Virus record (IMG/VR): IMGVR_UViG_3300037991_001277
Span: 32,001 to 96,000 of that record
DNA: 64,000 nt
Direction: 5' to 3' (one strand)
From: a virus
Lineage: Duplodnaviria > Caudoviricetes
Positions within the stretch are counted from its first letter, which is position 1, and every line of letters begins with the position of its first letter. The notes below the pieces were generated by a model that was given only the letters and a program-made list of their open reading frames with translations, was not told the origin of the DNA and did no database searches. Positions 11,229-45,678 of this stretch are shown here, piece after piece. Position numbers and translations under genes: made by a program.

Positions 11229-12466
11229 GTGACGGATATGGTACACCTATTCGCCTCCACTTTGACGGTGGAGTAGGTCACAAAATAGGTCTTGGTGACA
11301 AACCTTTTCCTCCTATGGAACTTCAAGCACTCTCTATTGCTCTTAGCGTAGAGCGTAAAGTTGGTGGTATGCCTATACCGCTATTCGGAGGGTCAAGAAT
11401 AGGTATTGATTTGAACATGGTTAATTCTACAATTGTTATTGAGGGTATTTTTACAGACGATGATGTAAACAGACGCTCATCACCTGCTACTGCTGCTACC
11501 AGTGTAATTGATTTTGCAGTTAATCAAGCAGAAACTTCTAGCATTGGTAAGTTCGTACAAGTAGCAAACTCAATTTTTTTCAGCAATTTAGAAAAACTAG
11601 AGTTAAAGGAAAAGCAATCTGCTGATAGTAGCGTCACTGTAGTAAAGACTATTCATTTTGTGCCTGATAACAGTAAGGACTTTTCAAACCCCGGTGTTTC
11701 AAATGTTGTAACAGACACTAATTCTCCATCCGGTACAAAAGTATACACTCATTCTTCATCAACAACACCAGCACATATCGCTGCTTCTGTCGTGACAGCA
11801 TTAGGAGCAAGTCATCTAAACTCAACAATCACTGGCTCTGTATCAACATCTGAGTTTGCACCTGCTGCTGGTAGTTCAAAACTTACACTTACACAAGGCG
11901 TTAATGGTGCGATGTTAGTTAATGATAGCGTAAAATGGTTTGTAGATGCTGACAACTATGCTCCATATCACCGACCATTCAGTGGAGGCTCAAGCGCAAC
12001 TGATTTGAACAATAAATCGGCTGGAGATAAAGTGCAAGACTTGTATGGTATCTTACACAATACAGACAGAGGCACTGCTGCTTTAGTCGCTGGCTTAGCA
12101 GTTGGTGTGGCAACTGGCGGTGTTGGTTTAGCCGTTGGTGCTGTAGCAGGTGGTGTTTTAGGTTTTGATGGTTTATTTAATGGTGATTATCCTATTGGTT
12201 TACAAATACCTTACAACTCAATGATTACTGCTGATGATGGTAAAAAATATAGTGTCCGTAACTTTATGATTCAGACTGGTCTTTTTGTAGATACAAATGA
12301 AAAAATAGCATCGGGTAATACAAAGTCAGCAAATGTAGATTTTAGTACAACAGATGAAACCACTGGTATTCAAGGTACAATACAGAAGTTTGATGTTGGG
12401 TACAATGCTGGTGAGCAACACTATACATTCCAAATGGTCTTTGCTCCGATTGACATGATTATTTGA
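11225..12466 (+). CDS. putative distal tail / baseplate protein
   Basis: Follows the tape measure gene; beta-rich; contains a Gly-rich hydrophobic segment. Confidence 0.5.
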   Translation: MSDGYGTPIRLHFDGGVGHKIGLGDKPFPPMELQALSIALSVERKVGGMPIPLFGGSRIGIDLNMVNSTIVIEGIFTDDDVNRRSSPATAATSVIDFAVNQAETSSIGKFVQVANSIFFSNLEKLELKEKQSADSSVTVVKTIHFVPDNSKDFSNPGVSNVVTDTNSPSGTKVYTHSSSTTPAHIAASVVTALGASHLNSTITGSVSTSEFAPAAGSSKLTLTQGVNGAMLVNDSVKWFVDADNYAPYHRPFSGGSSATDLNNKSAGDKVQDLYGILHNTDRGTAALVAGLAVGVATGGVGLAVGAVAGGVLGFDGLFNGDYPIGLQIPYNSMITADDGKKYSVRNFMIQTGLFVDTNEKIASGNTKSANVDFSTTDETTGIQGTIQKFDVGYNAGEQHYTFQMVFAPIDMII

Positions 12467-24400: not shown

Positions 24401-27400
24401 AACTCGCCTGAAAGTATGCCTCCCACTGATGTACCGGGTCGCAGTCTTGACAATTTCCCAAGTGACGGTGATACAGAATCAGACCAAGTAAGTTTCTCTG
24501 TAGATGACCCAGTGGCATTTGGCACATATGTCGTAGGCTGGGCTGACGGTGCTCAGTTCAACAACCCACCAGTGATGCGAACTATGCCTGAGTTACAGAA
24601 AGAGTTGGTTCATCCTCAAGGTACTTACGCTCGTGCGTTATTAGTAGTAGCACATGAGGGTGAACTTAGTTTAGTAGCAAGGAAAGATAGAGATTCATAC
24701 ACTACTACTGGTGATTATCTTTTAGCCGGTGGTACTACTCAATGGGATGAAAGATTCCATAACGCTGACCGATTTATTGCTCCAGCAAACGCTGGGCCAA
24801 ATGTTGAGGCTTTGATTGTCGATGGCACAGCACCGCCTACAATTGCTGATTATACAGCAACAAGTGCTTTAGATGACGCACCTTTCAATGCTCAGTTCTA
24901 CCTACATGGTAGTATATCTGCTGATACTTCATTGTTAAACGCACAGCCTTGCTTTGCTGAAACAGGCGATTTATTCTTTGATATTGACAAAAATGTAGGT
25001 ATTATAAATCACGAAGAAGATATAGCGGAAAGAAATCTTGCTACTGATTTTATTACAGCGAATACAAATCCTTCTGCTATTTTGGTTCACAATGTAGGTA
25101 CTAATCAATCTCCAGTATTTTGGGCTGGTGATGTAAACGCTTACGATGTGCTAAAACGCTCCCCTCACAAAAACTTCAGCACAGAACATATTGTGTGGAA
25201 GCGAATGGATGGTGGTACAGTTACTATGCCAGCATCAAATGCTCGTGGTTTAGGAGCAGTGCCGTGGATTACTCGTGTTAAAAACGCAGTAGTAGGTGGT
25301 GCTGCTGGAACTGCTCATCAAATGGGAGAGAAGTTGTATGGTAACATTCGATTCTCTTTTGAGACAACAAACTCAGCCATGATGCCAGTTCTACAGGCAC
25401 AAGAAATAGCACACCCTACATTAGCAAAAGAGCACCCTATTGCTCTTGGTGGTATACTTGAGATACCAAATGAAGAAATACAATTTGAAGATATTACCGT
25501 TGTTGATGATACAGGACAGGTACACACACTAGAAGGCGGCTCTCCTTTGGGTATTGTTATCAGAGCGTATAAACCAACATCGACTAGACTAGCAAGTGGT
25601 TTACAGCCAGTTCCAGCCAACAGCGGTATCGCTCCTAACTTTGAGATTCAGTTACCCGACCCTGAATCTATACCCGGAAATATCCTTGTCCGTAGTGGCT
25701 TTGACCCAATTCAAGCGTACCAAACTGAAACCGTTGGTGACGGTGGTATGATTCATCCTGATTTGGGTGCTTCTCACATTGGTCATTTGTTTGACAATGT
25801 AGTGAAGTCACCGAGAAAAGGGCCAACTATGAACGAAGTAGGATGGGAGCACATATCGCAAGGAGAAAACTTCCCTGAGTCTACTCGTGATGGATGGGTA
25901 GAAGCAACACGCAATAACTCACTACGCAGTTCTTACGAGCAGCAAGACAGAGCACTGTATTTCCACATCACTAAGATGGGTCACAGTCACACTGAAAAGT
26001 TCCCAGTAACTTACACTCACGCTGCTGGGGTAGTAAATCAAGATTTGACGGTCAATAGTTTCGCCAGTCCTGTTCTAACTGCTAGTGCTACTATTACTCC
26101 CTCTATATTCGATGCTGGATTTGGAACAAAAGAAGTAGCGGATAATCGTAGATTTATTCGCATAACAAATCCAGCGGGTGAAAGCGTTGTTGCTTCATAT
26201 GCTTCTATTGGAACTGGCGGTGAGGCTAATCAATTCAAGGGTGTAGTAGGAGATATTGACTTCGACCAATTCCTTGTAGACAACCCACCTGCTACAACAA
26301 CATTGACGATTACTCCTTCTTACTATATCCCAGCGGGTAGCACTCGTATATTTGCAGCAAGAAGATTGCGTGACCACGCAGAAGTAAGTGGTAACAGTCC
26401 TGACATGGCTCACACTCTATACTTTGATGGTGATTCTCAAACCACTATTCATTCAAGATATAGCAAACCACAACTAACTCCAATGCCTATTCCTCGTATG
26501 GGTCACCACTTCGTCAATGCTACCATGCCTATGATGCCGGGTCATTGGGCGCATCCTTCGTATGCAGGTTTGTATGACAGAGCAAACTCAGATAGACTTG
26601 CTGCTCTAGGTGACGAGGACTACACTTCATTGGCTGAGAACTTAGTTGAAGTAGATGGTACAACAAATAATCAAACATCAATTCCTACAGCAGTTAAAGA
26701 GAGAATATTCCCTCTTAACCCAGCATTAAGAGTAGGTTCGCTCACTGCCAACCCATCAGGGCCAAGTGACATTCACGGTGGCGCATTTACCCTAATGTTT
26801 GAGACAAAAATCAAGTATGACGGTTACGGTATACTAGCATCAAAAGGCACTGCTGGAGATATGAATAAGGCCGGAGGTCACTCTATTGTGCTTGAGGCTG
26901 GGGGCAATTATACTCAAACCAATCATTTCCCTGACCCTGCTGAAGTTGGAGCATATCAAATTGTCATTCAACCAAACTTGCGCTCACAACAAATTACAGG
27001 ATTTCATCGTAACAATGCTGACTCTACAGGCTTACCAACTGCTGGTACAGAATTGTCGAGTCTCACAAGTCAGCAAGTTGCTCTTGTAATAGGAATAAGG
27101 TACGATGAAGGGCGACACGCAACACTAACTAACTCTGCTAATATCGGTGGTTTGACACTAATATTGTCCGAGGCTACATTGGCTGATGTAAGAGGTTGTG
27201 AGATATTCTTGAATGAGGTCATACTAGACCACGACCCTGACCACGGTAGCCAGTTTACCAACATCCCTCCGATGCTGCTTTATAATCCACTTGGAGTCCA
27301 AGGTAGCGAAAGTCCTCACTTTACTCGTAGAGGTCACCCATACCACCCTACTACATCTGAAGTTTCTTTCAAAGATGCTACGCCCGGATTTACAACTAAC

Positions 27401-30400
27401 ATTCCGTGGTGGAGTATTATGCACCAAGGTACTCCATCTGACGCATCTGCTGTTGGTTTCAGGCATCTTGCCTTGTATCGTATTGACAATTACTATCAGT
27501 TCTGTCGTGCAAGTTATGGAGCAATAGGTGCTCAATTGACACTGGCTGGTTATCCTAGCATATACCCTGATATTTACTCAAAGATAATGGAGAATGTCAG
27601 TCTTACTCCTACTTGTATAGTAGTAGGAAATCACAGTTCTTCTACTACTATACAAGTTGATGACTGTTCACTATTCCCTGAGATACCGTATTATGGTCAA
27701 AAATTACAGTATATCGACCCTGATACGGGGGAAACTGTATCTTTTGCTTACACAAAAAGACGGGGTACAACACACAGTTCAAGCAGTATGAATGAGCCTG
27801 ATATATTCCATCTACCTACAGGTGTCACATTAACAAGCGGTACTAAACTGACACTAAGCAAACCGTACTCTACAAAATCTGTTAATGACATTTTCAACAT
27901 AGATAGTGAAAGTGTAATGACAAAGAATCTAGGACAGTTACTAAATGGTACAAGAGATACAAACAGTCTTTTCCTAACCGATGCGTACCTATGTGCTTGG
28001 AGTCCTAATTTGGGTCGCCCTCATACTTTCTATTCCGATGCAAGTAGAACATGGATTACAAACGGTGTGAATCACACAGCAGATAGAGCAGTGAACAACG
28101 CAGCATACAACAGTATGCCACAGCATTTTGAGACAATACACTATCAGGATGTTAATTATACCGCAAGTCATGGGCCGTTTGCTTTGAAGATGAAAACACC
28201 AAAGCCTCCTCAACCACTTGCTGGAACTGTTCATGCTATTACTACCACTACTGTTACAGTGATAACAATGACCACGACTGTTAGTGGTGTATCTTCAAAT
28301 GATGTGCTATTCGCAAAAGGTAGAGTTATTGGTAGAGTAAACACTGTTAGTGGTGCTAATATTACGCTCCACACCAAAATATTTCAGAGCAGTAACTTGG
28401 TAACTGGAGATACTGTGTATGTAGGTGCTGATGGTTCAATTGATACCGCTGTAAATATAAACTCTATGACTGGTATTTCGTCTCAGGGTGGTGCAACTGC
28501 TATGCTCACTAACTTTTGGCCTTGCGGTAGTCGTGGTGGGGCATTGGTTAGTCGATTAGATGGCTACGCCATGTCAGCGGCAGCATGGCATTTACCGCAA
28601 AATTATGCACATGGGGCTGGCCTTCACTGGCGAGATGATGACGATAGTGGTAGTTATGCAGTTGCTAACGGTGTAAGCACTATATCAGCAACTGGTATTC
28701 GCACTTATCCATTTGGTTATCGCTTTGGATTAAGACAGGCTTGGAATAGACCTCAATGGGGTCATTATGGTATGCGTGCATTCCAAGAGCAAGCCACTCA
28801 TTCAGGAGCAAGTAACTTTGCAGTAGGCTACAAAGCAGGGCCACTGGTAGAATATGAAGCCATAACAAGTAACGGATGGCTTTACGCTGGTGGAGATACA
28901 ACGCAAAGCAATACTAACTTACCAACAACCTATGTTGGTATTATCGAGCGTAGCACTACAGCAGCGGGTATGTTGAATGCTGACAAGTACGAATGGCAAG
29001 TTCGTTACAGTGAAGGGCGAAGAATGACAAGAGGATTTGGTTGTGCTATTCGTACCATAAGAAATGCGAGCACTGTACTAAGAGATTGGTGGGGTGATTC
29101 AGCAGGTAAAGGCATGAGTCAATATAGACAAGCGGCTGCGTATTATCTGATTGATTGGTGGGGTAATACTCGTGGTGAAGATGTACGAAGATTCCCAGTT
29201 CGTAGTTTCGGTATTAACCCATCTTGGGATGCTGGAGATGCATACGAATATGATAGAGCCAATGGTCGTACACCATTTGAGCGAGTTTGGAATAACGGTA
29301 AGCCTATCTTTGACTTGAAGGGTATTGTCGATTTCACTAACGGTAATGTATTATCATCACCTACAGTTACTATTCCTAGATTCGGTGGTAGAAAGAACAC
29401 TGGTAACAATAATACAGACACTACCTTAGTCGATGTATTTGCTCCTACAAACGCTATGCGAGTAGGAGATATGGGTAATGGTCGTGGTGTACGATTCCCA
29501 ACTCAGTTTAACGAAGATAGATTGGTAGAACTCAGTGCCGTCTACGAAAACTCAGGTATAGTGTTATCAGGTAACACAGCAGAGCCTACATTTGGCGAAG
29601 GTCTAATTCGCCCAAGAAACGATGTACTGCAAGCAAGTGAAATTGTAAGAGGTATCAGTAGTAGACTAGAAGTAGACGAGGATGGTTTGTTAAAACCTGA
29701 AGCAACAGTGAGTGACAAGGTAGAGTCAATCAGTGGTACATCAGTACACAAAGATGCTATTTCTCGCTCTTCTCCAAGAATTGGTATAGATGGTGATACA
29801 ATAGAATCTTTCACTGGTAGTAATAGCAACATGATAGCCATTAACTCAGAGGCACATAGTCTACACACTAACAGAGGCGTGGGTCAAAGAGTTGTATTAC
29901 ATGGTGGTATGCAATCAGGTTCTCAAACGCTTGGTGACTATGACTTAACATCACTATCGTTTGCTGCTCAGCCTCATGGTGGTGTGATGAGATTTAGCCA
30001 CACTAGCAACTTTAAGCCGATGGGTGGAACTTACATCCTAGAGGCTCGCAGTTTCGCTAGTCCATTCGATGACACAGGATGGGGGCGCAGCGGTATGAGT
30101 GGTACTAAAACAAGCAATCCATACCAAACAACAAGTTCGATAGCAAACCCAACAAACAAGAGTGATGACGCTGTGCAGTTTATGCTTAGACCTATTCGAT
30201 TGCTTGACAATCAACACATAGCAGTATTTAGACCAGCATTGGCTCTACATAGCGGTAGTAAACAAAATGGTAGCACTGCATTTACTGCCACTGCTGGTGG
30301 TAAGTATGGGTTGTTTACCTACTCAACACCAAACGGTAGAGCGAGCAGTGGGTCATACATGCGTGCTACTAACCCTGACACATCAGCCCCGTATCAACCA

Positions 30401-30682
30401 GTGTACTTAGTTGAGTCTAGCAGTGACACTGTGCCAGTGTCAAAAGGCCCAAAGTTGCCGGGTACGGAGGTTACTGGCTTTGATAAAACGACATTGAAGA
30501 GTAGCGTTACTAGACTTATCATAAGTGAAAATACCCTACAGCATTTCAAGAGTGATGCTCCTAGAAGAACAGGCCAAGGTAAGGACTACACTGTTAAATC
30601 AAGGTTCAGTCAATCGCTGCATAGTAAAGGGCATAAAGAAGATGTATCATTCAACACATCAGACCACAGTGGTGATGCGTGA
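12476..30682 (+). CDS. giant 6068-aa virion/tail protein with N-terminal LamG (ConA-like) domain
   Basis: Uninterrupted 18.2-kb ORF with RBS GAGGTGA; IEAWV...YHIVA...IYVNG...YIGG...FRGVIEGI is LamG-like; repeated GxGY beta modules. Confidence 0.85.
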   Translation: MPIMLQSNHALFFDGVSDSVIIPQGNFSKLGQDYDKETAITRRSSEEIVSHSSGRGIIADALGSGLAIEAWVIPDCGGVILMKDGQFRLSMGTVDTPGPIEFEANLTSSSIGDFKVLLRSAQPETNGYDGHVYPVTTFGGLDDSYNRFDSGKDKATSLSKNQRPLYHIVACINQSNAEIYVNGDLVANQNIPVGSALKSKNSHVYIGGKGGEFRGVIEGIHVSSSFSNEMTTRNPSMVSEKTISLFRFEEPISPLDTVYTISSIDSTYSDSGGGTPFTENDLTAITIPTADAQSLANALTGKTITDTYVDFTISPYSTGDYSVIDRYSTPGTTTNHLVPHVPYNLLINPGSINQNSKKPNGKPPERVRLHRINISSGELLVSSIHLDFKNTTNTNGLRPILHSTHTSANGANSFVVISADCLIENGTGRPYQPPHLATQLIDRAGQMLIDEGEYEQHAMVYSSRMSTTAVDTDNPFAVAWPTDLDESFQIGHSGRHILNHIEGHSYLRMMPRANEENLDQQAGNSDILTLMYDAATKGIDKMFPINSQVDYYKDTAAFEIKTVVNSSAPHEVVSNGLAGANRTLIAIGGSKTGARNFNPLPFVLKGPVPSDLDNIDSNVRKFHLHPSRNSRVALLHVPTLASRGLAPYVEVHYNAIDFTGASMNKTAPMLMVEKTVPASNYEVASGVYVYDDIATDVAAGTATLYSPGGYIDVGKSKEGNLGSINFSHSLVGDNSEGFEADVELDERLTPANFTATTTNGNTTPQSLTASHTTKAQHDSVFHRILIERVQNADALEITSEFNRMTPHTVHGSPSAGQFDIGVTSSASAIHEMFDIIDNVEITTLVGVTHRFFIQPSDRTRTNQLQYIYSTGDRPDSSNIAVVMFLMGRSKLRGVEQIEGDEGRFTVVNCVGLSDVAATRSINELGSGSPDSHVVKEIDPNAPVVSVTLGGVGQGAYDTKPSFDRSTLAHLPYSSRRGFSCLATKVRVDLSSSNETQFIEVSPLNNESPDLASWGTYPFPKVGRIYLKNGANAEYQSKNGSCFLFTDSTIATRRFLLPNGNAVATFQDWVVGSGLRKDAGTLTGTQSQDFPLGEIIMGDGHFFVENLQSDGTTVNDRMFQSMDNISHDYQLGTQFASTRALVEIPLFRGQFFVDRFRNSYPSPDNSLKLHIDPTMTAHTWNPSPVGRRYQDMPPSDRSAYGAFAKSILSNQRNNQSNITNFEILTSTYRIYVSNPKMYPAGDTSSNKYFNVDDVLLYRRVFLPSGEWAIYSNNPAADGYIEIVKEESYVSEAFVGEVVIGLPLLMGNAYDSQVLVPLKGDSLNAAADFENRGEHYYDAASVKTQGGNIDYGLRQYVSAVEFKAGPLSNPHAAKIQSKRAAGTILSVEPIMNGSVYTGFAHLIMSQEDVDKFPTIERQPNAINADYEWEMGQAHYSLEIGANTFVYFGEGNKNKSTLVTSGTTPTDSLDTLSSIIVMTKENNSIPSYLDNDTLKGEVATLTKYGYDVFFSSDKYNTLLDNTVNMSHTGRPLHYSAPWEVTGLGGSDDELGLAIGKSEILQSNTFHLNVQHEDWLYAEHHKDGEVVKVTLLGQVDYIDESIIVHNPVTLPQAAGIVHLKSAVPTANKTSLNAMIGAAALSATEFVYLRTGCHSMMVNDEEACLNRTWLFPYAQGGLRRGDTIWMNMTYNNPHAVQGMFAKSRGVLNEALVWKGFNGGLGLMAAEPRDSIPLENFLIGDSCIDTARNFVQHVNKTIELNYTNLGIGNPPTVAYLDPYLATEGHARVLLYDVAHDREFIAFQDIHMQVQTSQKAAEIGFERLSTSQNVADGTDEVDLSFYSIKYNGGGQNPFITQVDVANGYPSQNKYIRAYQHSNFMESAYAHNIANSMASEMLDPVKGIVTRVAALRGQTAFNKQNGTGYPSGTTTNVATTAINTTGTGLTVDITTTGGQITTIAVNNPGSGYLTSRSGGSGFESKVRISGGDNNAVFKVFTTNTSLINTLTTMTQSMIYGKAHGHFVHTGFHTGGPLARERTLGDSITSRTNNATVTIYHANKEHKKTRKLFSSNDILVKALMQHRIKKGKTLTLKAGGSTYNNGTFFNVRTTSDGKGKGMTVDVTISSNAVATATVRRHGNSLYKDGDTIFIEDRRVNDLPSAAPPVVAGDGKGSFTLNLNNTNDETSTLFDTPDGTRVIPAFLALKGIRSEALDLSNMNETRLQHLPQWTQMDFTRRMTIDLGEVAVKDGITNVEAAATEVVRMINQAAAKKGRTHSDNNNKQYPVKVAGEADFATTGSTHDPAVWWDEDKAFESHDKGTHMGYIRAHLGRVVKNIDGSEEGFSIIIHSTVPGATGRNFCVWLDNSKGQIPYRPEFMIGHGGRFRTFWCMPDEISGENMHPAPMPLNKHGRPFAPITSLRQYTQPDESMQAVASKGEFSNNHDETTTPKLRAVSAYSGSGQNHNTLNTESVEIEGFNTSFTEGLRVGTNAVARVNFGGLVAAGIPGFAPDAGKWGFGRKGDNRFANDYGLLTTVSNTDPASTYTGHVPTPDTFPENIGDTNLYGLRLQDHRGVSHGLRYIYKNMDDEFALDNTILPKTLDNEVAIYFNHKDCSQGGFTIGRHMHGISDPTGRFPAIPDNANLANWRGNYWRGTPAPNASYNTNVVYSAANQTITVTLYAPYDACDHHDILGYMGFPAENGVIHLSDPFNHMGIATITAGGSGYTANQTGADAIGVGGSGDGMTLSINTNSSNAVTSVTITSLGEGGYINGDTISVSGIGGTNAQFTLGESINGNWGNMFSYTHRTRNDKTGTHVFHGVVGDTYVSRHKHHSSSTISAPVFEAGDYVVGETTESTSALITPVANWTTLITDELMAAVTAFAINLDNPNKQEGHFFDCTEMYAADGRTFAEWGITEESIKIKAYNTKNDIEPISNFFTASLSQDIGIRASHIEYGEVESLKLDDEGVSIGGTGDRPVTNDLIDNGRSVNCGYIPSTVLQITTSGRGHNANTPTPNIVDSQNNPIDTNTWRKNLIGENFIESSGDLILPNIDNPTLKMSAIGHSGGALLLHSDNAMWHFAKPSGEESNVNHVFNGSSNDLTRVNSFGTQTPISYGKHTAITESQGTSLAAAESTFKAISDENLRSEDWPSSNPSGTIVIQKYNDTRRAFLFAGKRSLGSVHSIPIIRFTGARDSPDNYVPLFFGGGFSGATIDINDGTQNDYSEHNTHPYANGPTGSSGIQNANEILSSFSTIDCNAIMAFFPATALLKQHRGSINPPVYNKDSILSQDLKRGSHTPSNIHPNAAPYTAGVHMQVPSPMVLRFAHPTARYQDHRDGTENKTTFIIFGPGQAFPLTQESASPNNNFEPHPGHAISTGNGWSRVPNMSSGAGGRAFLPNHIHNSNGDYMPERAATQLNKRRFHYRQVLNWESPLGIADNVFLRERPESGRNYGNSFTAAAFKQYNSFGNFTDNVALAYSVAQPSRHAMFYGHGMVKNADLCWHMDNGNHPGGSWMDNQITMNPPREADDARIPAQTTTTQINKTAFRVAGTLATKMLYSNGNSSSPAFAAETLDADDVDHDYIVVDATRCQNSEELACVLGAAINTFPGKGALKAIGGTFMPSMGNSTKQDRYGWIEAESTVIPAGVYGGGAGGVTPHSSVSGLGYSNNVISNEPMTRQILTTSTFTGNITSGDPVIAVTGTFPPNMQAGQTVTGLGIQANTVVVSFTSNTITVSPNPNATNSGVTITHTHNTLGNTASLASNLKAGDCFIDLRIVGYSITDAQSVVNRIPASGWLRTEANTDYGGVVSSSVKTAAWACYHSRATYRDGSDLFCRFFLSNNKITGLKAFEDGEAWRIYANTTTPFNSQNGSNVGGVSLPHPAPTNGTKVWIWSKSSTLGVDNSTNFQRYLEKGIGAVHFSGIVDAIDRTKPVGVVGWHGERYSYLNTLPVDGGYSAGLGAWHSMLGFSPYGAASSCATILGHLPHTTPLPNSPESMPPTDVPGRSLDNFPSDGDTESDQVSFSVDDPVAFGTYVVGWADGAQFNNPPVMRTMPELQKELVHPQGTYARALLVVAHEGELSLVARKDRDSYTTTGDYLLAGGTTQWDERFHNADRFIAPANAGPNVEALIVDGTAPPTIADYTATSALDDAPFNAQFYLHGSISADTSLLNAQPCFAETGDLFFDIDKNVGIINHEEDIAERNLATDFITANTNPSAILVHNVGTNQSPVFWAGDVNAYDVLKRSPHKNFSTEHIVWKRMDGGTVTMPASNARGLGAVPWITRVKNAVVGGAAGTAHQMGEKLYGNIRFSFETTNSAMMPVLQAQEIAHPTLAKEHPIALGGILEIPNEEIQFEDITVVDDTGQVHTLEGGSPLGIVIRAYKPTSTRLASGLQPVPANSGIAPNFEIQLPDPESIPGNILVRSGFDPIQAYQTETVGDGGMIHPDLGASHIGHLFDNVVKSPRKGPTMNEVGWEHISQGENFPESTRDGWVEATRNNSLRSSYEQQDRALYFHITKMGHSHTEKFPVTYTHAAGVVNQDLTVNSFASPVLTASATITPSIFDAGFGTKEVADNRRFIRITNPAGESVVASYASIGTGGEANQFKGVVGDIDFDQFLVDNPPATTTLTITPSYYIPAGSTRIFAARRLRDHAEVSGNSPDMAHTLYFDGDSQTTIHSRYSKPQLTPMPIPRMGHHFVNATMPMMPGHWAHPSYAGLYDRANSDRLAALGDEDYTSLAENLVEVDGTTNNQTSIPTAVKERIFPLNPALRVGSLTANPSGPSDIHGGAFTLMFETKIKYDGYGILASKGTAGDMNKAGGHSIVLEAGGNYTQTNHFPDPAEVGAYQIVIQPNLRSQQITGFHRNNADSTGLPTAGTELSSLTSQQVALVIGIRYDEGRHATLTNSANIGGLTLILSEATLADVRGCEIFLNEVILDHDPDHGSQFTNIPPMLLYNPLGVQGSESPHFTRRGHPYHPTTSEVSFKDATPGFTTNIPWWSIMHQGTPSDASAVGFRHLALYRIDNYYQFCRASYGAIGAQLTLAGYPSIYPDIYSKIMENVSLTPTCIVVGNHSSSTTIQVDDCSLFPEIPYYGQKLQYIDPDTGETVSFAYTKRRGTTHSSSSMNEPDIFHLPTGVTLTSGTKLTLSKPYSTKSVNDIFNIDSESVMTKNLGQLLNGTRDTNSLFLTDAYLCAWSPNLGRPHTFYSDASRTWITNGVNHTADRAVNNAAYNSMPQHFETIHYQDVNYTASHGPFALKMKTPKPPQPLAGTVHAITTTTVTVITMTTTVSGVSSNDVLFAKGRVIGRVNTVSGANITLHTKIFQSSNLVTGDTVYVGADGSIDTAVNINSMTGISSQGGATAMLTNFWPCGSRGGALVSRLDGYAMSAAAWHLPQNYAHGAGLHWRDDDDSGSYAVANGVSTISATGIRTYPFGYRFGLRQAWNRPQWGHYGMRAFQEQATHSGASNFAVGYKAGPLVEYEAITSNGWLYAGGDTTQSNTNLPTTYVGIIERSTTAAGMLNADKYEWQVRYSEGRRMTRGFGCAIRTIRNASTVLRDWWGDSAGKGMSQYRQAAAYYLIDWWGNTRGEDVRRFPVRSFGINPSWDAGDAYEYDRANGRTPFERVWNNGKPIFDLKGIVDFTNGNVLSSPTVTIPRFGGRKNTGNNNTDTTLVDVFAPTNAMRVGDMGNGRGVRFPTQFNEDRLVELSAVYENSGIVLSGNTAEPTFGEGLIRPRNDVLQASEIVRGISSRLEVDEDGLLKPEATVSDKVESISGTSVHKDAISRSSPRIGIDGDTIESFTGSNSNMIAINSEAHSLHTNRGVGQRVVLHGGMQSGSQTLGDYDLTSLSFAAQPHGGVMRFSHTSNFKPMGGTYILEARSFASPFDDTGWGRSGMSGTKTSNPYQTTSSIANPTNKSDDAVQFMLRPIRLLDNQHIAVFRPALALHSGSKQNGSTAFTATAGGKYGLFTYSTPNGRASSGSYMRATNPDTSAPYQPVYLVESSSDTVPVSKGPKLPGTEVTGFDKTTLKSSVTRLIISENTLQHFKSDAPRRTGQGKDYTVKSRFSQSLHSKGHKEDVSFNTSDHSGDA

Positions 30683-35158: not shown

Positions 35159-35323
35159 TTACTTGAAGGCACTATCTTGCCAAATGTGACCGCATTCTTT
35201 GCACTGCCATAGGCTTATTCGCTCACGCTTACCATCTAGGTAACGGGCTTGTAGCCTTCTTGGGATATGCTCGTGTAAACAAGCCCTACATTTTACCTTG
35301 AGTTTGTCAAGGAGTCTACCCAT
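35159..35323 (-). CDS. 54-aa TFS/TFIIS-like C-terminal Zn ribbon (not in ORF track)
   Basis: MGRLLDKLKVKCRACLHEHIPRRLQARYLDGKRERISLWQCKECGHIWQDSAFK; TGATG overlap with the chaperonin stop. Confidence 0.65.
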   Translation of the reverse strand: MGRLLDKLKVKCRACLHEHIPRRLQARYLDGKRERISLWQCKECGHIWQDSAFK

Positions 35324-36798
35324 CACTCAGCACCTCTACGCCCGATTACATCATCAATGCGTAGAATAGCACTAGCAACTTCAGTAGCACCATTGATGGC
35401 ACTACGAATAAGCGATGTTGGTTCTAATACTCCCTTCATTTCTTTAATTCCACCATTCTCCACATCAGGGCCATAAGGCTCAGGTAAAGAGTGTCTCATC
35501 GCTAAGACAGTATCAAGTGGGTCATAACCAGCATTCTCAGCGATGGTAGCAGGGATTGCTTCAAGTGCATCTGCAAAGGCTTCTATCGCCATCTGAGCAC
35601 GACCACCTACTTCACTAGCATTTGCACGCAGGTGCATAGCAATAGCAAGATAAGTAGAGCCACCACCATAGCGCATAGAGTCGCCATTCTCAATCAATGA
35701 TACAACCCCTAGAGCATCATCAAATCCACGCTGAATCTCATCAAGAGTAGATTGAGTAGCACCGAACAATACTAGCGTAGCCTCTTTGTTTTGTGCGTGT
35801 AAGAATAGATAGGGTACATCATTGTATGTCTCACGAGAAATAAAAGCAGTACCAGTTGTAGATGTAGCGTCAGGGAACATATGTGTAGGTGCTCCTAATT
35901 CATTTGACAGTCTACGCATTGTACTCTCAGGTACTCTCTGTACTACAGATATGCCTTGTTTGCGTAGATATGCTATGGCTGTATCGTGGATTGCGTCACG
36001 ACATAGAACCACATTAGCACCACTGCTTACCACTGCCTTAGAAGCAGCGAGTAATTTGTCACGCCCCATCGCTTGAACTTGACTGTAAGAGTTAGCATCA
36101 GATACTTGAACAGATACATTTGTGTTATCCTTGCCTTCTGTAAGCCCACCATTGAGTAGTAATACTTCTACACCATCTTCATTTGACCAGTTGTTGAACT
36201 CATCGCCACCACCAATGAAGTCCTTATTGAGAACTACACCACGGAACAGATAAGAGTCAGACAAAGAGCCACCGGGGGCAGCGAGTGTCTTTACCTCACG
36301 AGCGTCTCCAACTGCTTCTATTGTTTCTACACACAAGTCAGCAACTCTATCCTCTGATGTTTCAAGGGATTTACCAGTGATTGCAGTCTTTGCTATGGTT
36401 TGTAAGTCTCCCTCAGCATTAGGCATACCGTTAAGACATTCAATAGCCATATTTCGTGCCGCTGCATAACCTTTGATGACCACATTAGGGTGCAGTCCTT
36501 TACTGAATAAGTTCTCTGAATTGGCAAGCATTGAACTCGCTAGTACAACTGTGCTAGTAGTACCATCGTATGCATTTGCCTCTTGCATCTTAGATACCTC
36601 TACTACCATCTTAGCAGCAGGGTGAGCAGTGTCAAGTTCTCGTAGGATAGTAGCACCATCGTTAGTTACGATAACATTACCACCACCGTCTACCATCATC
36701 TTGTCCATGCCTAGTGGCCCAAGTGTCGTTCTCACAGTTTCAGCGATACGCTTTACTGCTTCTATGTTTAACCTCTGTGTTGTATTATTCTCCGTCAT
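35323..36798 (-). CDS. group II chaperonin (thermosome-like)
   Basis: TTLGPLGMDKM, TNDGATIL, DGTTS, GGG and AILRIDDVI motifs; start ATG 36798 after GAGG. Confidence 0.95.
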   Translation of the reverse strand: MTENNTTQRLNIEAVKRIAETVRTTLGPLGMDKMMVDGGGNVIVTNDGATILRELDTAHPAAKMVVEVSKMQEANAYDGTTSTVVLASSMLANSENLFSKGLHPNVVIKGYAAARNMAIECLNGMPNAEGDLQTIAKTAITGKSLETSEDRVADLCVETIEAVGDAREVKTLAAPGGSLSDSYLFRGVVLNKDFIGGGDEFNNWSNEDGVEVLLLNGGLTEGKDNTNVSVQVSDANSYSQVQAMGRDKLLAASKAVVSSGANVVLCRDAIHDTAIAYLRKQGISVVQRVPESTMRRLSNELGAPTHMFPDATSTTGTAFISRETYNDVPYLFLHAQNKEATLVLFGATQSTLDEIQRGFDDALGVVSLIENGDSMRYGGGSTYLAIAMHLRANASEVGGRAQMAIEAFADALEAIPATIAENAGYDPLDTVLAMRHSLPEPYGPDVENGGIKEMKGVLEPTSLIRSAINGATEVASAILRIDDVIGRRGAE

Positions 36799-37405
36799 TC
36801 CAATCAACCTCAATTTCAACTATAGAGCCGTCATCCATACTGCGACTCTTTACAATGCCATTGTCACAACCATACTTGTATAGGTCGTAAGTCAATTGAC
36901 AATCTTTCAGGCAGTAGTCGGCTACCTCAAGATACTTACCTTCACGCCATGCTAATGGCGCATCGCTACTCTGCATACTCTTTGACAAGTCAAGAGTAGT
37001 GCGTACAAGAGTGTCAAGTGTGGTGTGAACTTTACCCACGCTCAATGCTGCTTTATCAACTAGCATCTTGGTGTCAATGATACTTTCACTTTTGCTCATC
37101 AAATCACCAGCAGTCCAGCAGTCCAGTGCAGCATTTAGAACTGGTAAATCGAACTTACGAATATTGTGACCCAGTATCTTACCACCACCGTCAATGTGTT
37201 TCTGCAAATGGTCACCAAGAGTACGAGGGTGTAAGTCGTGAACAGTAGCATTTGCCATTTCTATATTCTGCTTAGCAAACACATTACCCTCTATGCCATC
37301 CCATGTTGCTACAACTGTAGGCTCAAACAGACTATGTTTATCCCAACCGCCTATTTCCCAAGAGTAGTTACCAGTCTCAATATCCAGTGCCATAATGTCA
37401 CTCAT
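36785..37405 (-). CDS. DnaQ/DEDD-like 3'-5' exonuclease (RNase H fold)
   Basis: ALDIET, GHNIRKFDLPVL and YCLKDCQLT motifs. Confidence 0.85.
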   Translation of the reverse strand: MSDIMALDIETGNYSWEIGGWDKHSLFEPTVVATWDGIEGNVFAKQNIEMANATVHDLHPRTLGDHLQKHIDGGGKILGHNIRKFDLPVLNAALDCWTAGDLMSKSESIIDTKMLVDKAALSVGKVHTTLDTLVRTTLDLSKSMQSSDAPLAWREGKYLEVADYCLKDCQLTYDLYKYGCDNGIVKSRSMDDGSIVEIEVDWNDGE

Positions 37406-41273: not shown

Positions 41274-41573
41274 TCACCCCTCTATCAATGCCATTTCGTA
41301 TATCACTTTACTAACGATAGTGTCGTATGTATTCCTAATATGCTCTAGGGTTAATTTAGATGGATGGATGGCGATGAAGAAGCAAATGTGTCTATCCTTT
41401 ACATCAGATTCTTCATTATAATCATCAAGGACTAATTGAGACATTGACTTGACCATGATACGCTTACCAGTGGGGAGAAGTGATGTTTCTACAGAAAACT
41501 CATACTTAGGCCATAACTTCTCTAGTGACATTTGTAGCAACAATGAAATCGTATCTAGCCCTTCTTTATCCAC
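41274..41573 (-). CDS. hypothetical protein
   Basis: ORF with GAGGTGA RBS, within the operon. Confidence 0.55.
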   Translation of the reverse strand: MDKEGLDTISLLLQMSLEKLWPKYEFSVETSLLPTGKRIMVKSMSQLVLDDYNEESDVKDRHICFFIAIHPSKLTLEHIRNTYDTIVSKVIYEMALIEG

Positions 41574-41577
41574 TCTA

Positions 41578-42666
41578 TCACCTCATATCATCAGGGTCGA
41601 TTGCTAAGTCACCCATCCAAGCCGGACACATTTCCATGAAGTCACACCAAGCGCATTTTGCCTCGTGAGCCTCAGCAGGGAAATCATCATTCAAATGTGC
41701 ATCAATTAAGCGCACAAGCCTCTTCTCTACAGTTTTAGGAGCGTACCGACCACCCGGCCCTTTTACGCTCTCGTAATCCCACATAGCACCTTCGCCACCA
41801 TTGATACCTCCGCCCGGAAACTGCCAGCCCCAGCCGACAACAGGTAGGTATTCTATGTGAGGGCTGTGCTCTAGCATCATACGATAGAACTGCATTTCAG
41901 CACGCATAGAAGCACGCTTACGCTCTACCCACTTACCAGTTTTCAACTCCATTAGAATGATACCAGTGTGGTCATCATCAATGAAGATACGGTCAATGAA
42001 CCCCTTCATGTGAATTGGTACTACTCTACCATCAGTGGCTACCACCACTCTTGTTGAATGAATCTCTACTTCATTAGCAATAGGAAACCAATCTTTAGGA
42101 TTGTTCTGCATCTGTAATAGCCTTTCAAATTGCCAGTCTACATACTGATTGAGTTGAGGCTCTTCACCATAGACATAGGGAGTAGGAGGCTTGGGTAGTG
42201 CTTTACGCAACTCCATCTTAGCAGTGTTTACTTTTCCTTCACTTATCAGTTCATTAACAACTGGTAGGCTCGTGTGTGACTCTTTCCAAAACCACTCCAC
42301 TGCATCGTGAACATTTGACCCACGGATGTGATGGTCTTGCTCTTCACCTCTCATTCCTAGTATGTTTTGAAAATAATACTGCTTAGGACAGAAATCGAAA
42401 GTACCCAGCGATGACTTAGTTACACGGAGTATCTTGTCCTCCATGCTAGGTTGCCAGTTGTATGCACTCTTGTCATACGACTCAAGCATTTCAGGATAAG
42501 GGTACTGAGTATCTACTAGGTACTCAGGGAAAGTATTCATTGACTTCTCTACAATGCAGTCATAGTCATTACAGATGGAACAGGCTTTGCCTTCGTCAGC
42601 ATCTTTCACTACCACACTACACGCTTCACACCAGTAAACAGTAGTTTCATTCGGATTGAACCTCAT
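41578..42666 (-). CDS. PD-(D/E)XK Cas4/AddB-like exonuclease with Fe-S cysteines
   Basis: SSLGTFDFCPKQY, GSNVH, GFIDRI, ELKTG, Q..Y, C.WC.F...C. Confidence 0.85.
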   Translation of the reverse strand: MRFNPNETTVYWCEACSVVVKDADEGKACSICNDYDCIVEKSMNTFPEYLVDTQYPYPEMLESYDKSAYNWQPSMEDKILRVTKSSLGTFDFCPKQYYFQNILGMRGEEQDHHIRGSNVHDAVEWFWKESHTSLPVVNELISEGKVNTAKMELRKALPKPPTPYVYGEEPQLNQYVDWQFERLLQMQNNPKDWFPIANEVEIHSTRVVVATDGRVVPIHMKGFIDRIFIDDDHTGIILMELKTGKWVERKRASMRAEMQFYRMMLEHSPHIEYLPVVGWGWQFPGGGINGGEGAMWDYESVKGPGGRYAPKTVEKRLVRLIDAHLNDDFPAEAHEAKCAWCDFMEMCPAWMGDLAIDPDDMR

Positions 42667-43120
42667 CCCCACCACCGAACTTGTTGTACTTTCTTACTGC
42701 TCTTTCTAACTTTTCAGGTGGGATAAATGGCTCATACCTGCCCTCTCTTTCCTTTACCAAATCTTGAGGGTGATAAGGGTCGAAGTCCTTGTTTCTGTAG
42801 TAGTCTAACTCCCCTTCTGCTCCTTCTGAAAGTGGCTGTGGGTCAGGTCTTTCATCCTCCATTGTCAATCGCAATAGAATGAAGTAACCAATCAAGTCCT
42901 CAATCACATCAATGTCAGACTCAATGGTATCACTCCCTCGCATGAGTCTACTGAGTTTATCATCAATCCTCACTCTTAAACCAGCATCAGGGGGTAAGTC
43001 GCTAAAGAATCGGATAGGGTCAAATGCGCTATCGCCATACTGTTCATTCTTCTCAGCAAGTAGATTTACTACTGTCGCTGCTATCTTAGCACACTTCATC
43101 TTAAACGAATCTTCTGTCAC
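42647..43120 (-). CDS. DUF1599 / nucleotide-modification-associated all-alpha (MazG-like) protein
   Basis: KNEQYGDS...RIDDKLSRL...DVIEDLIGY pattern. Confidence 0.7.
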   Translation of the reverse strand: MTEDSFKMKCAKIAATVVNLLAEKNEQYGDSAFDPIRFFSDLPPDAGLRVRIDDKLSRLMRGSDTIESDIDVIEDLIGYFILLRLTMEDERPDPQPLSEGAEGELDYYRNKDFDPYHPQDLVKEREGRYEPFIPPEKLERAVRKYNKFGGGDEVQSE

Positions 43121-43254
43121 TCTTCTTCACCAACTTGGTCTTTAGTGTTCCTTTTTATATCAGCCTCAAAAGTCATTCCAAACTCAGTGAGTTTTGTCTG
43201 TCCTTCAAATGTCATTCCATACTCCGTCAATTTTGTTTGTCTTGTTTTTGTCAT
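43117..43254 (-). CDS. 45-aa tandem PIP-box microprotein (not in ORF track)
   Basis: MTKTRQTKLTEYGMTFEGQTKLTEFGMTFEADIKRNTKDQVGEEE; RBS GAGGTGAT; GTGA overlap with the next gene. Confidence 0.7.
   Translation of the reverse strand: MTKTRQTKLTEYGMTFEGQTKLTEFGMTFEADIKRNTKDQVGEEE
43146..43164 (-). promoter_or_regulatory. variant promoter motif GCTGATATAAAAAGGAACA
   Basis: 2 mismatches to the consensus; flank CTAAAGACC shared with the 55576 copy. Confidence 0.55.
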
Positions 43255-43263
43255 TTTATCACC

Positions 43264-45678
43264 TCAAAAATATGACTTAGGCATAGTCGCTCCAGCGGCA
43301 GCATCTAGTTCCCAGTCAAGGCTCTCGTATATTCGCATGAGTTTAGACTTAACCATTACACTGAGCACTTTATCCCAGTCTATGGTGTAGTTCTTCAACT
43401 CAGACTTATCACGGAAAGCAACGAAGTCTACCTTCTTCTTCTCCCCGTTGAGAGTATAATAGTCAGGTACATCATTGTTGAAGCCCTTGACATAAATCCA
43501 TGATACACTGTCACCCTTAGCCCATCTTTCATCAGCATTAGTAGCCACATGCTCATTGTAATACATAGCAGCCTTTGCTGGTGCTGGTAGGCTCTTGTAA
43601 TCTTTGAAATCCATAGTCAATCGAGAAGAGCAAGCCACATCTTCAATTGGTATTTCACCGTTCCTAACTTGGAGACTTATTTCTCTCAGTGCATCAGTCA
43701 CAGCCTCTTCGTCTTTACCAGTGCCTATCATTTGCATAGCCACTTCTTGAATGCGTTTGGTAATCCGTGATGAACTAGAGGCTTTGATTTCATAACCACT
43801 AATCTTCATTTCACCCTTGCTCTTTTCAGGCCACACCTTGATACCGAAGTAACGGTTTTTCACTGGAGCAGTAATCCAGTAGTCAAAGTATGCTTCAAGT
43901 TCAACCTCCATTGTTGGTAAGTTCAACTTATCCTTCGCAGTTTGAGTAAGATGCTTAGCGAGTGGCTCAGCATCATCGAATGGAACTTGAATAAACGCTG
44001 AATCAGTATGACCATACAGCGACTTGTAGCCCTGCTCTTCACTCTCCTTTAGCAAATGTTGGATAGCCTCACGCCCTCTGTATGTGATAGCGGCTGCTAT
44101 ATCATTATCAATCCACATACCTTGAACAGACTTCATTCCCGTCATACCGTATAGGGCATTGACAAGGACTTTTGCTGCGGTCTGCATCATGTCGTACCCC
44201 AACTTCTCATCAGGGTCTGTAGCGTCACGCATGAGCCTTTTGTATTCAGCACGAAGAGCGAGCATTTCTTCAACAATAGAAGGTAGTAGACCCTTCTCTT
44301 TCTGACACCAGTGTGAACCATTATCCAATGTCTTGGTAGTGGTAGTCGGATGGTCACGCTTAGTAGTGTAACATAAATTGTCACTGAGAATGATGTTTGG
44401 ATATAGTGAGGCATAGTCTACAATGGCTACACCCTCATGTCTACCGGGAATAGGGTCAGGTATGTGTGCAGCAGTGAGTTGCTCACGCCTGTTATTGATA
44501 GCACTCTTGGCTTTCATCTTAGTCCTTCTACCAACAAGACCTCTAAAGTATCGAGTGACCTTGTGTGTACTGGCAAATGATACACCACATAACTGTTGTA
44601 CTGCTACGAAGAAATCAATGGCATTGAGTTTCTTGTCAATGTCACGCAGTAGCGTAGTGTCAAGGAGACAGTAATCTACGAAGTCACTCCAGTATTCGTA
44701 CCAACCATTGTGAACAGTCATACCCTCAATCTCCTCAGTTAGTTTGCTACCAAGTTCAAGTCGCTCTGCTATGGTATTCAACTTACGATTAGGTAATTGT
44801 CCTCTACCTGACTTCTGCCATAAGGATTCAAAGCCACTACCTGATTTCCAAGGTGCTGCTGAGTCAAAACATATTCTACCCTTGATAGGCTGTTGAGTAT
44901 CTTTGTAACCGTCTCTACCCTTGAATGGTCTAATCACTTGACCAAGTGGTGAAAGTTGGTCAGGGTCTTTGAGTCTACGCATAAGGTGTGGTAAGTCAGC
45001 CCACATGATAGCATGGGCTACGAGAATATCGGGGTCACGCTTGTGTAAGAACTTGATGAAACTCTCGTGCATTTCTGCTTCAGAAGAGTGATTGAAGAGA
45101 GTGTATTTTTGACCTCGGACTTCTTTATCTATTGGCCCACTTGGGGTCGAGCGTGTAGGGTGAGGGCAGTTAGTTTTCTCCCAGTCAGCCCAAGCAAATA
45201 CAACAGGCTTCTCAAGGTCGCTGTCTACTACAGCCATAACTGATGTGAAGTCCTCCTTTATATCCCACTCCAAATCAAAGTACCATACACGAGGCTTAAA
45301 CTCAGGTAGTTTGTCAGGATATAATTGTAGTAACACTTGGTCAAGATAATTCAAGTCTGCTTCATAAGTAGGCATTTCATCTTTAATATCCCAAAGGTCT
45401 GTAGGTTTGTCTACCTCGACTTTCATCAGTGGCTTCTTGTCAATACCTTTGGCACGAATGTCTCGATGAATCTTAGCACTGGGGTATCTACCCATCATAC
45501 GATTGAGTTTCCACTCAGGAGTATCTACTGGAATCCAACAATGCGGCTTTACATACCTATCATCTTCAGGCCATATGTGCTCTTCTTGCAGCGTACCATG
45601 CTTGTCACGAGTACGCAAGTACAGATTAGGTTGTCCGAAGTTGTCGGACTCAGCAGGGTAATACCAGTCAATAATCAT
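43264..45678 (-). CDS. polB: family B DNA polymerase
   Basis: Exonuclease DLE; polymerase motifs DYASLYPNI, K..VNALYG, YGHTDS, KNRY. Confidence 0.95.
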   Translation of the reverse strand: MIIDWYYPAESDNFGQPNLYLRTRDKHGTLQEEHIWPEDDRYVKPHCWIPVDTPEWKLNRMMGRYPSAKIHRDIRAKGIDKKPLMKVEVDKPTDLWDIKDEMPTYEADLNYLDQVLLQLYPDKLPEFKPRVWYFDLEWDIKEDFTSVMAVVDSDLEKPVVFAWADWEKTNCPHPTRSTPSGPIDKEVRGQKYTLFNHSSEAEMHESFIKFLHKRDPDILVAHAIMWADLPHLMRRLKDPDQLSPLGQVIRPFKGRDGYKDTQQPIKGRICFDSAAPWKSGSGFESLWQKSGRGQLPNRKLNTIAERLELGSKLTEEIEGMTVHNGWYEYWSDFVDYCLLDTTLLRDIDKKLNAIDFFVAVQQLCGVSFASTHKVTRYFRGLVGRRTKMKAKSAINNRREQLTAAHIPDPIPGRHEGVAIVDYASLYPNIILSDNLCYTTKRDHPTTTTKTLDNGSHWCQKEKGLLPSIVEEMLALRAEYKRLMRDATDPDEKLGYDMMQTAAKVLVNALYGMTGMKSVQGMWIDNDIAAAITYRGREAIQHLLKESEEQGYKSLYGHTDSAFIQVPFDDAEPLAKHLTQTAKDKLNLPTMEVELEAYFDYWITAPVKNRYFGIKVWPEKSKGEMKISGYEIKASSSSRITKRIQEVAMQMIGTGKDEEAVTDALREISLQVRNGEIPIEDVACSSRLTMDFKDYKSLPAPAKAAMYYNEHVATNADERWAKGDSVSWIYVKGFNNDVPDYYTLNGEKKKVDFVAFRDKSELKNYTIDWDKVLSVMVKSKLMRIYESLDWELDAAAGATMPKSYF

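Follow-up and report, generated by a model that had tools for sequence, protein, structure and literature searches.

A conserved microprotein gene with tandem PIP-like motifs behind polB of an uncultured virus, and its candidate role at a sliding clamp

The micro-ORF behind polB

The window, a stretch of 64,000 nucleotides (nt), comprises bases 32001-96000 of a 105.5-kb virus record (IMGVR_UViG_3300037991_001277) that is rated 99% complete. It contains a tight minus-strand row of genes in which a 251-amino-acid (aa) sliding clamp gene is followed by polB, the gene for a DNA polymerase of family B (PolB), a short open reading frame (ORF) referred to as the micro-ORF, a 157-aa gene, a PD-(D/E)XK nuclease gene, a 99-aa gene and a primase-like gene (Table 1). 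The micro-ORF is the subject of this report; its 45-aa product, MTKTRQTKLTEYGMTFEGQTKLTEFGMTFEADIKRNTKDQVGEEE, contains two 13-aa tandem repeats, QTKLTEYGMTFEG and then QTKLTEFGMTFEA, each with a core resembling the PCNA-interacting peptide (PIP) box.

The coding sequence runs on the minus strand from 43254 to 43117, TGA stop included, which corrects the strand in the initial annotation, whose description of an ORF with its own ribosome-binding site and two 13-aa repeats otherwise holds. The end of polB (...ATMPKSYF-TGA) is followed by GGTGATAAA and the ATG of the micro-ORF, and the first two bases of the Shine-Dalgarno (SD)-like word GAGGTGAT are the last two bases of the polB stop. SD-like words precede 27 of 97 long viral ORFs compared with 69 of 2000 random positions, and GGTGA(T/C)AAA-ATG is preserved in the related loci L001-L006. 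The second copy of the TGAGGTGATAAAATG junction, already pointed out at 12464, does exist and heads a 6068-aa ORF of the structural arm (12476-30682, plus strand).

The two repeats differ at 9 of 39 nt, with five codons changed synonymously and two nonsynonymously (Y/F and G/A), in keeping with the earlier description of mostly synonymous differences. In a six-frame translation of the 105.5-kb virus (121,765 residues in open stretches of at least 25 aa), the strict core QT.[LIM].[ED][FYW] occurs twice, both times within the micro-ORF, and the looser pattern Q..[LIM]..[FYW] occurs 78 times, giving a Poisson probability of ~3e-4 for two within 45 aa. A chance origin of the motif pair is therefore excluded. 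Searches of Pfam and PHROGs with the microprotein give no match. Its description as unannotated is half right: the exact 45-aa sequence is present in the ESM Atlas, which otherwise holds no usable match, and a 47-aa relative is already called 'hypothetical protein' by NCBI, JGI and Tara on 22-57 contigs.

Table 1. Features at and around the micro-ORF (positions in the window)
Feature	Position	Strand	Remarks
Viral PCNA-fold sliding clamp, 251 aa	45683..46438	minus	Fold predicted by AlphaFold2: predicted local distance difference test (pLDDT) 94, predicted template modelling score (pTM) 0.89
Family B DNA polymerase (polB), 804 aa	43264..45678	minus	Pfam DNA_pol_B, E 1.8e-47; ends ...PKSYF, no PIP box
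SD-like word GAGGTGAT	43258..43265	minus	Ends 3 nt (AAA) upstream of micro-ORF ATG
Micro-ORF, 45 codons and TGA stop	43117..43254	minus	Frame open in 22 of 22 related loci
Repeat 1, QTKLTEYGMTFEG	43201..43239	minus	PIP-like core QTKLTEY at 43219-43239
Repeat 2, QTKLTEFGMTFEA	43162..43200	minus	PIP-like core QTKLTEF at 43180-43200
Promoter-like element GCTGATATAAAAAGGAACA	43146..43164	minus	Within the ORF tail; spans codons A31-N36 plus base 1 of codon 37
GGTGAAGAAGAGTG, SD-like GGTGA and GTG start of 157-aa gene	43118..43131	minus	Overlaps GEEE codons and micro-ORF stop
157-aa gene (phrog_1485, no assigned function)	42647..43120	minus	GTG start overlaps micro-ORF stop
99-aa protein of the ~100-aa family	41274..41573	minus	Loop SQLVLDDY (41418-41438), weakened motif copy

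Conservation and spread of the gene and its motif

Among 80 polB-related loci in IMG/VR, 76 extend to the polB stop (the four that run off the end are omitted), and 26 of these carry, immediately downstream of polB, an ORF of 25-69 aa that contains the (R)QTxLxE[FYW] motif once or twice. A 27th locus (L082), on a contig in a metagenome-assembled genome labelled Parvibaculum, is the sole match in a PolB scan of genome contigs and brings the total to 27 of 77. The 30-kb contig carries an 82%-identical polB, a clamp gene and an ORF of 67 aa with two motifs; most probably it is viral and was binned wrongly. In all 27 loci the micro-ORF starts 1-13 nt past the polB stop. On a PolB tree (FastTree, 77 rows) these loci form three clades (10, 13 and 4 rows) lying to either side of the midpoint root, and at least three gains or losses of the micro-ORF are needed.

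The reading frame is open in 22 of 22 related loci, and four of the five alternative frames contain stops in 7-21 of the 22; the remaining frame, an antisense one, is open in 21, as is to be expected of short ORFs that lack TTA, CTA and TCA codons. There are 17 distinct DNA versions of the nine-codon core; over pairs that are not independent, the pooled proportions of nonsynonymous (pN) and synonymous (pS) differences are 0.19 and 0.75. The initial annotation had proposed that the peptide is under selection and that its motif is to be read as a PIP box; conservation across relatives supports both proposals, with the ORF retained downstream of polB in three PolB clades, and the micro-ORF is almost certainly a real, conserved gene.

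Compared with the PIP-box definition, both motifs have the Gln at position 1 (Q6 and Q19), a Leu at position 4 (L9 and L22; L or I in relatives) and an aromatic residue at position 7 (Y12 and F25; F, Y or W in relatives). The repeat-2 copy of the motif is shared by all 24 aligned relatives, with its Gln invariant, and six of the 24 (25-54 aa) have a single motif, some such peptides being only 25-31 aa long. The two motifs, where both are present, are 13 residues apart in seven members, 15 in nine, 16 in one and 28 in one. An Arg directly precedes the Gln in at least 90% of aligned rows; positive flanks are reported to increase PIP affinity (PMC6881253). The micro-ORF motif is also close to the archaeal consensus PIP peptide KTTQSTLDSFFK, which was crystallised on A. 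fulgidus PCNA (PMC4929162).

The conserved tail of the product, [AV]DIK...VGEEE (here ADIKRN...GEEE), is best read as the translated promoter and ribosome site of the 157-aa gene that follows. The element GCTGATATAAAAAGGAACA is a variant of a 19-nt promoter-like motif, GTTGATATATAAAGGAACA, found upstream of six replication-arm genes (39063, 49901, 53329, 55576, 59285 and 60698; minus), and the TATA-like core TGATATAAAAAG occupies an equivalent position in L001-L004, L006, L007 and L082 and appears as a variant in L008 and L009; behind it, GGTGAAGAAGAGTG overlaps the end of the ORF. In the second large clade the peptides stop at or shortly past the second motif. The last 15 residues are mostly a by-product of the DNA signals of the next gene, and the function of the peptide is placed in the first 30. 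For annotation the lesson is that promoter sequence can make up one third of a 45-codon ORF and functional peptide the remainder.

When 1.84 billion representatives are scanned with HMMER, 35 proteins reach E<=1e-3, 28 of which are peptides of 28-99 aa made of one or two units, some of 28-30 aa consisting of only two units. A DNA pattern for RQTTLEEFG finds 59 further loci in IMG/VR with 60 instances, every one of them in an open frame of 24-85 aa and none in a long protein. The peptide lies right behind polB in 19 of these loci and elsewhere in 33 (28 with no polB in the stored stretch, five with polB distant or on the opposite strand), and in the other seven the motif pair sits inside a zinc-ribbon ORF of 83-85 aa, 312-506 nt further on. 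A relative of the 157-aa protein follows the micro-ORF in 13 of the 59. In seven of the longer loci away from polB (L092, L094, L106, L113, L128, L129 and L140) the upstream ORF has at most 252 aa; in L092 and L140 the micro-ORF comes after a ThiF-like gene (as shown for L140) and before two small genes and then an ORF of 506-509 aa, which in L092 is an ATP-dependent DNA ligase according to Pfam.

The motif occurs at the C-terminus of 29-30 aa peptides (...RQTTLEEFL*) and of a 117-130 aa protein, at the very C-terminus in L035 and L038, and at the N-terminus of 125-164 aa proteins whose fold is unassigned; two GC-rich proteins also carry it, one of them with DUF6884. In proteins of 142-144 aa, two N-terminal motifs are followed by a lipobox-like LLFLSASLAGC and then a domain of ~100 aa, an arrangement that could represent a membrane-anchored form of the motif module. 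Judged from these contexts, the motif behaves as a portable linear motif that is found as a free peptide, in a loop, at a C-terminus, behind a zinc ribbon and ahead of a lipobox-like segment.

The lipobox-like fusions are found at L084:3492-3920 (+) and in P0007, P0008, P0011, P0019 and P0045. The L084 fusion lies between ORFs of 169 and 131 aa in a neighbourhood like that of L092 and L140, with ThiF-like and DNA ligase-like ORFs, named by their likeness to those of L140 and L092, farther out on either side. Zinc-ribbon ORFs of 80-99 aa (CCVCG/CPHCG) with one or two motifs (RQTTLEEFGF...GQTKLTDFY) are present in L096, L098-L100, L126, L139 and L142, and at about 3100 in L010-L012, near polB or just before the clamp gene.

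Candidate function of the microprotein

The viral gene set includes PolB, the clamp, an RFC-like ATPase, a primase, a chaperonin and an ERCC4 nuclease, and a comparable set has been described for magroviruses (PMC5434244; PMC10768690). The 251-aa clamp has no Pfam, PHROG or PDB match by sequence; its model, predicted from 39 aligned relatives, has archaeal PCNAs as its top Foldseek matches (E 4e-13; TM 0.65-0.70 across the ten best, at 12-15% identity). The predicted fold and its structural matches bear out the initial assignment of this gene and indicate that the virus encodes its own, very divergent PCNA-type clamp. The absence of a terminal PIP box from PolB is likewise confirmed, and extends to all 77 PolB tails, none of which has a PIP-like pattern in its last 30 residues, regardless of whether a micro-ORF is present. 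None of the other replication proteins (97 ORFs), including the RFC-like ATPase, primase and nucleases, has a terminal PIP-like motif. The PolB C-terminus is aromatic in 73 of 77 (YW 42, WW 17, YF 7, EW 4 and LW 3), in clades with and without the micro-ORF.

The conserved PolB ends P-x-x-Y-W, Y-G-W-W and S-Y-F could be what the viral clamp holds on to in place of a PIP. In the large clade without a micro-ORF (L039, L044-L080), polB is followed by a coiled-coil protein of 66-125 aa, and most of these (66-92 aa) terminate in ...ELQEEL..F..INKI.APT.VG. Beside the replication module, at 35323-36819 on the minus strand, the virus encodes a chaperonin of the Cpn60/TCP-1 family (E 1e-120).

The proposed mechanism starts from a separately translated microprotein, the working part of which would be residues ~4-30, with two tandem (R)QTxLxE[FYW]G motifs and then a hydrophobic-x-F-E stretch. 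The motifs would enter the PIP pocket of a PCNA-type clamp singly and compete with clamp clients; pocket occupation is proposed as the mechanism because the peptide has no other domain. The pockets on the PCNA ring are roughly 50 Å apart. Only five to seven residues separate the two cores, presumably too few to bridge two pockets, and the second motif would raise occupancy through rapid exchange on the same site, with no second pocket reached. The bivalent clamp-blocking peptide of the initial annotation thus stands in one of its two parts: clamp blocking is the best reading that the sequences suggest, and bivalence is doubtful with motifs only 13-15 residues apart.

That the micro-ORF product is a clamp-pocket peptide is somewhat favoured, and its action there as a competitor of other clients is evenly poised. 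The host (Poseidoniales) PCNA is put forward tentatively as the target; the lean towards it exists because the motif resembles the cellular archaeal consensus and the viral PolB and replication proteins lack it. The viral replisome does not seem to use the motif itself, which weakly favours a foreign target, and the viral clamp is perhaps engaged through something else, such as the aromatic end of PolB. Host replication and repair would then be shut down or diverted, and the virus would replicate with its own divergent clamp and PIP-less polymerase. Clamp binding, competition and the host as target are all inferred; a complex prediction of the viral clamp with the microprotein scores 0.02 against a mark of 0.32, for which controls were not run, and counts neither for nor against binding.

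Several observations weigh against this proposal. Position 8 is a Gly in both window motifs and in most relatives (I, L, M, S or C in others, and F in P0059), so that QXXhXXaa is not fully matched and the motif, as its residues read, is PIP-like (Qxxhxxa) and short of a full canonical PIP box. The micro-ORF is dispensable, because it is absent behind polB in 50 of the 77 related loci and was not found elsewhere in three near-complete related genomes that lack it, in a profile search whose low sensitivity is apparent from its having missed RQSTLGEFG in L011. Its tight and recurrent position behind polB is left unexplained by a model of host shut-off. The micro-ORF profile also matches long DUF7487 arrays at E-values down to 7e-8, and the core may be a structural or nucleic-acid-binding unit instead of a PIP motif.

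The peptide could also act on the virus's own clamp, either as a regulator that times or limits viral clients or as a replisome hand-off factor, which is rather unlikely. In its favour, the viral clamp has a PCNA fold, the micro-ORF belongs to the clamp-polB operon and hugs the polB stop, and the same motif is present on other small replication-module proteins, as expected if the viral clamp reads it. Chief among these is the ~100-aa family to which the 99-aa neighbour belongs, modelled as a helix, three strands and a helix, with no match to this fold in the PDB (best E 0.17) and with the motif beginning a loop of pLDDT ~50. In the window's clade this loop reads [RKTLS]Q[TM]TLx[DE][FYW] in 14 of 14 loci that lack the micro-ORF (L010-L023); among the nine micro-ORF-bearing loci, six have lost it (SRILIENY, SRIINEDD or deleted) and three retain a weakened form (SQLILDDY, SQTSLLEYF). 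It looks, from these sequences, as though one function is retained either on the ~100-aa protein or on the free peptide, which suggests a function needed in every virus; however, this complementarity is a single split on the tree (n = 1 event) and is broken by L032, L033 and L037, where the micro-ORF coexists with a motif at the C-terminus of the larger protein. The lack of terminal PIP-like motifs on PolB, the RFC-like ATPase, the primase and the nucleases also speaks against a viral clamp that reads them, and a permanent competitor of one's own clamp seems costly.

A role as the split-off PIP tail of PolB, an adaptor in trans through which the PIP-less polymerase would be held at the clamp, had been raised in the initial annotation and is now improbable. 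Archaeal PolB normally has a PIP box, usually at the C-terminus (PMC4929162, PMC6204406), the ORF follows polB within 13 nt in 27 loci, and polB of magrovirus YSH_150918 is split into genes for the N-terminal and C-terminal domains (PMC10768690), all of which would suit a detached tail. Yet the PolB tails are alike, aromatic and without a PIP, whether or not the ORF is present; the single-motif peptides of 25-31 aa are too small to include a PolB-binding part; and the peptide lies away from polB in 33 of the 59 further loci, several of them beside a DNA ligase gene. No fusion of PolB length was found, in searches whose scoring would miss a long protein with just one motif.

It is more improbable still that the repeat is a short DUF7487-type repeat, a structural or nucleic-acid-binding unit with another partner. 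Seven long arrays match the micro-ORF profile in 2-5 stretches each (E from 7e-8 to 4e-4), and R-Q-T-x-L-x-x-Y-G plus a hydrophobic residue is common to both. The resemblance is seen only from profile to array, with none of 24 micro-ORFs matching Pfam DUF7487 at E<=10, and scores summed over many repeats inflate such E-values. The arrays have a period of ~19 aa with a VENPxQ turn compared with 13-15 aa without the turn in the micro-ORF, one or two units could hardly fold alone, and there is no DUF7487 in this genome. No mention of DUF7487 was found in the literature searched. In the arrays (P0042, P0044, P0050, P0054 and others) the unit is KxRQTxLEKYGVENPxQ, with Q-x-x-L-x-x-Y in each; they follow a zinc finger, and the longest (P0042, P0044 and P0050) end in a part that is nuclease-like by eye and has no Pfam match.

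The ORF could be open only owing to the regulatory DNA signals, its peptide being functionless, as its last third coincides with the promoter-like element and the SD word and start codon of the next gene, and as one antisense frame is open in nearly all loci. This is very improbable: the motif part is located upstream of these signals, its peptide sequence is conserved where synonymous change is saturated, and the motif recurs in lineages and contexts without that promoter. Read-through of the polB stop or frameshifting, appending the peptide to PolB as a clamp-binding isoform, is suggested by the window and L001-L005, where the ORF follows a TGA in the same frame after 9 nt and no other stop intervenes, but can be rejected for practical purposes given that only 6 of the 27 ORFs share the polB frame (frame +1 in 17, +2 in 4), that the polB stop is TAA in 11, including the in-frame L006, and that each ORF begins at a start codon of its own (ATG, in three loci TTG), most with an SD-like word. 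The same frame counts agree with the earlier caveat that the in-frame spacing reflects the geometry of the ribosome-binding site. A +1 frameshift at the polB stop was considered for the clade ending in YGWW, in which the frame is open upstream, and rejected, as the Trp codon gives no re-pairing and the frames differ between clades.

Clamp-pocket competition therefore stays the preferred reading. In its widest form, which is speculative and rather doubtful, PIP-only microproteins of magroviruses, which rank among the most abundant viruses infecting ocean archaea, would be the first known archaeal-virus inhibitors of host PCNA, with two rapidly exchanging mimics of client motifs stripping polymerases, Fen1 and ligase from the clamp, the virus immune through a different handshake between clamp and PolB (the aromatic PolB end), and lipid-anchored variants pinning host PCNA to the membrane. 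No free-standing viral tandem-PIP peptide gene was found in the literature searched, and the main texts of two magrovirus papers (PMC5434244, PMC10160649) and the ICTV profile contain no mention of a PIP or PCNA motif, while their supplements may list the ORF. Should the peptide turn out to bind PCNA, it would represent a natural, minimal and genetically encoded clamp blocker from uncultured viruses, and a first handle on how viruses of abundant marine archaea deal with host replication. The family also documents a linear motif moving among small viral proteins, as a free peptide, in a loop, at a C-terminus and in a putative membrane-anchored form.

Comparison with known clamp-binding systems

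A profile search of all PDB chains, including the TIP-PCNA entry 5da7, gives no relevant match at E<=10, and the peptide is outside the families of p21, TIP and the phage anti-clamp proteins; the proposed likeness to them is one of mode of action. p21 (CDKN1A), a protein of 164 aa, shares with the micro-ORF product a short, presumably disordered peptide with Q-T-x-[LM]-T-[DE]-F. The flank after the p21 core forms a strand along the connector loop, a role that G-M-T-F-E of the micro-ORF could play. By filling the PIP pocket, the p21 PIP peptide keeps other clients off PCNA (PMC6204406). p21 is a eukaryotic regulator that carries one such motif, at its end, whereas the viral product is free-standing and has two.

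TIP, a protein of 64 aa that blocks PCNA clients (PMC6204406, PMC4929162), is similar in being a small archaeal protein with an N-terminal PIP-like motif. It differs in having a further helix or PH-like part and in breaking the PCNA trimer (PMC6204406), and it is cellular, restricted to Thermococcales, has a single motif and shows no sequence similarity to the micro-ORF product.

Spd1 of S. pombe offers a parallel in its closely spaced, disordered tandem PCNA-binding motifs. Its two low-affinity motifs exchange on one PCNA site in a competition-based manner (PMC10939359), and one-pocket fast exchange, as measured there, would be expected of the viral peptide too because its spacing is probably too short for two pockets. 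Unlike the viral peptide, Spd1 is a eukaryotic regulator of larger size that also has other partners (ribonucleotide reductase), and its motifs are divergent and not near-identical repeats.

Phages Twort (gp168) and G1 (gp240) stop host replication through the DnaN clamp (PMC3594737), and these are likewise small virus-encoded proteins directed against a host clamp by a phage that uses other machinery. These proteins act on the bacterial beta clamp, are unrelated and do not consist of the client motif. The PIP boxes of archaeal clients (PolB, PolD, RFC, Fen1, RNase H2, NucS and NreA), which are usually terminal (PMC4929162), share the Q-x-x-h-x-x-a core and the consensus KTTQSTLDSFFK with the micro-ORF; in these clients the box tethers an enzyme to the clamp, whereas the micro-ORF product carries it with no enzyme attached.

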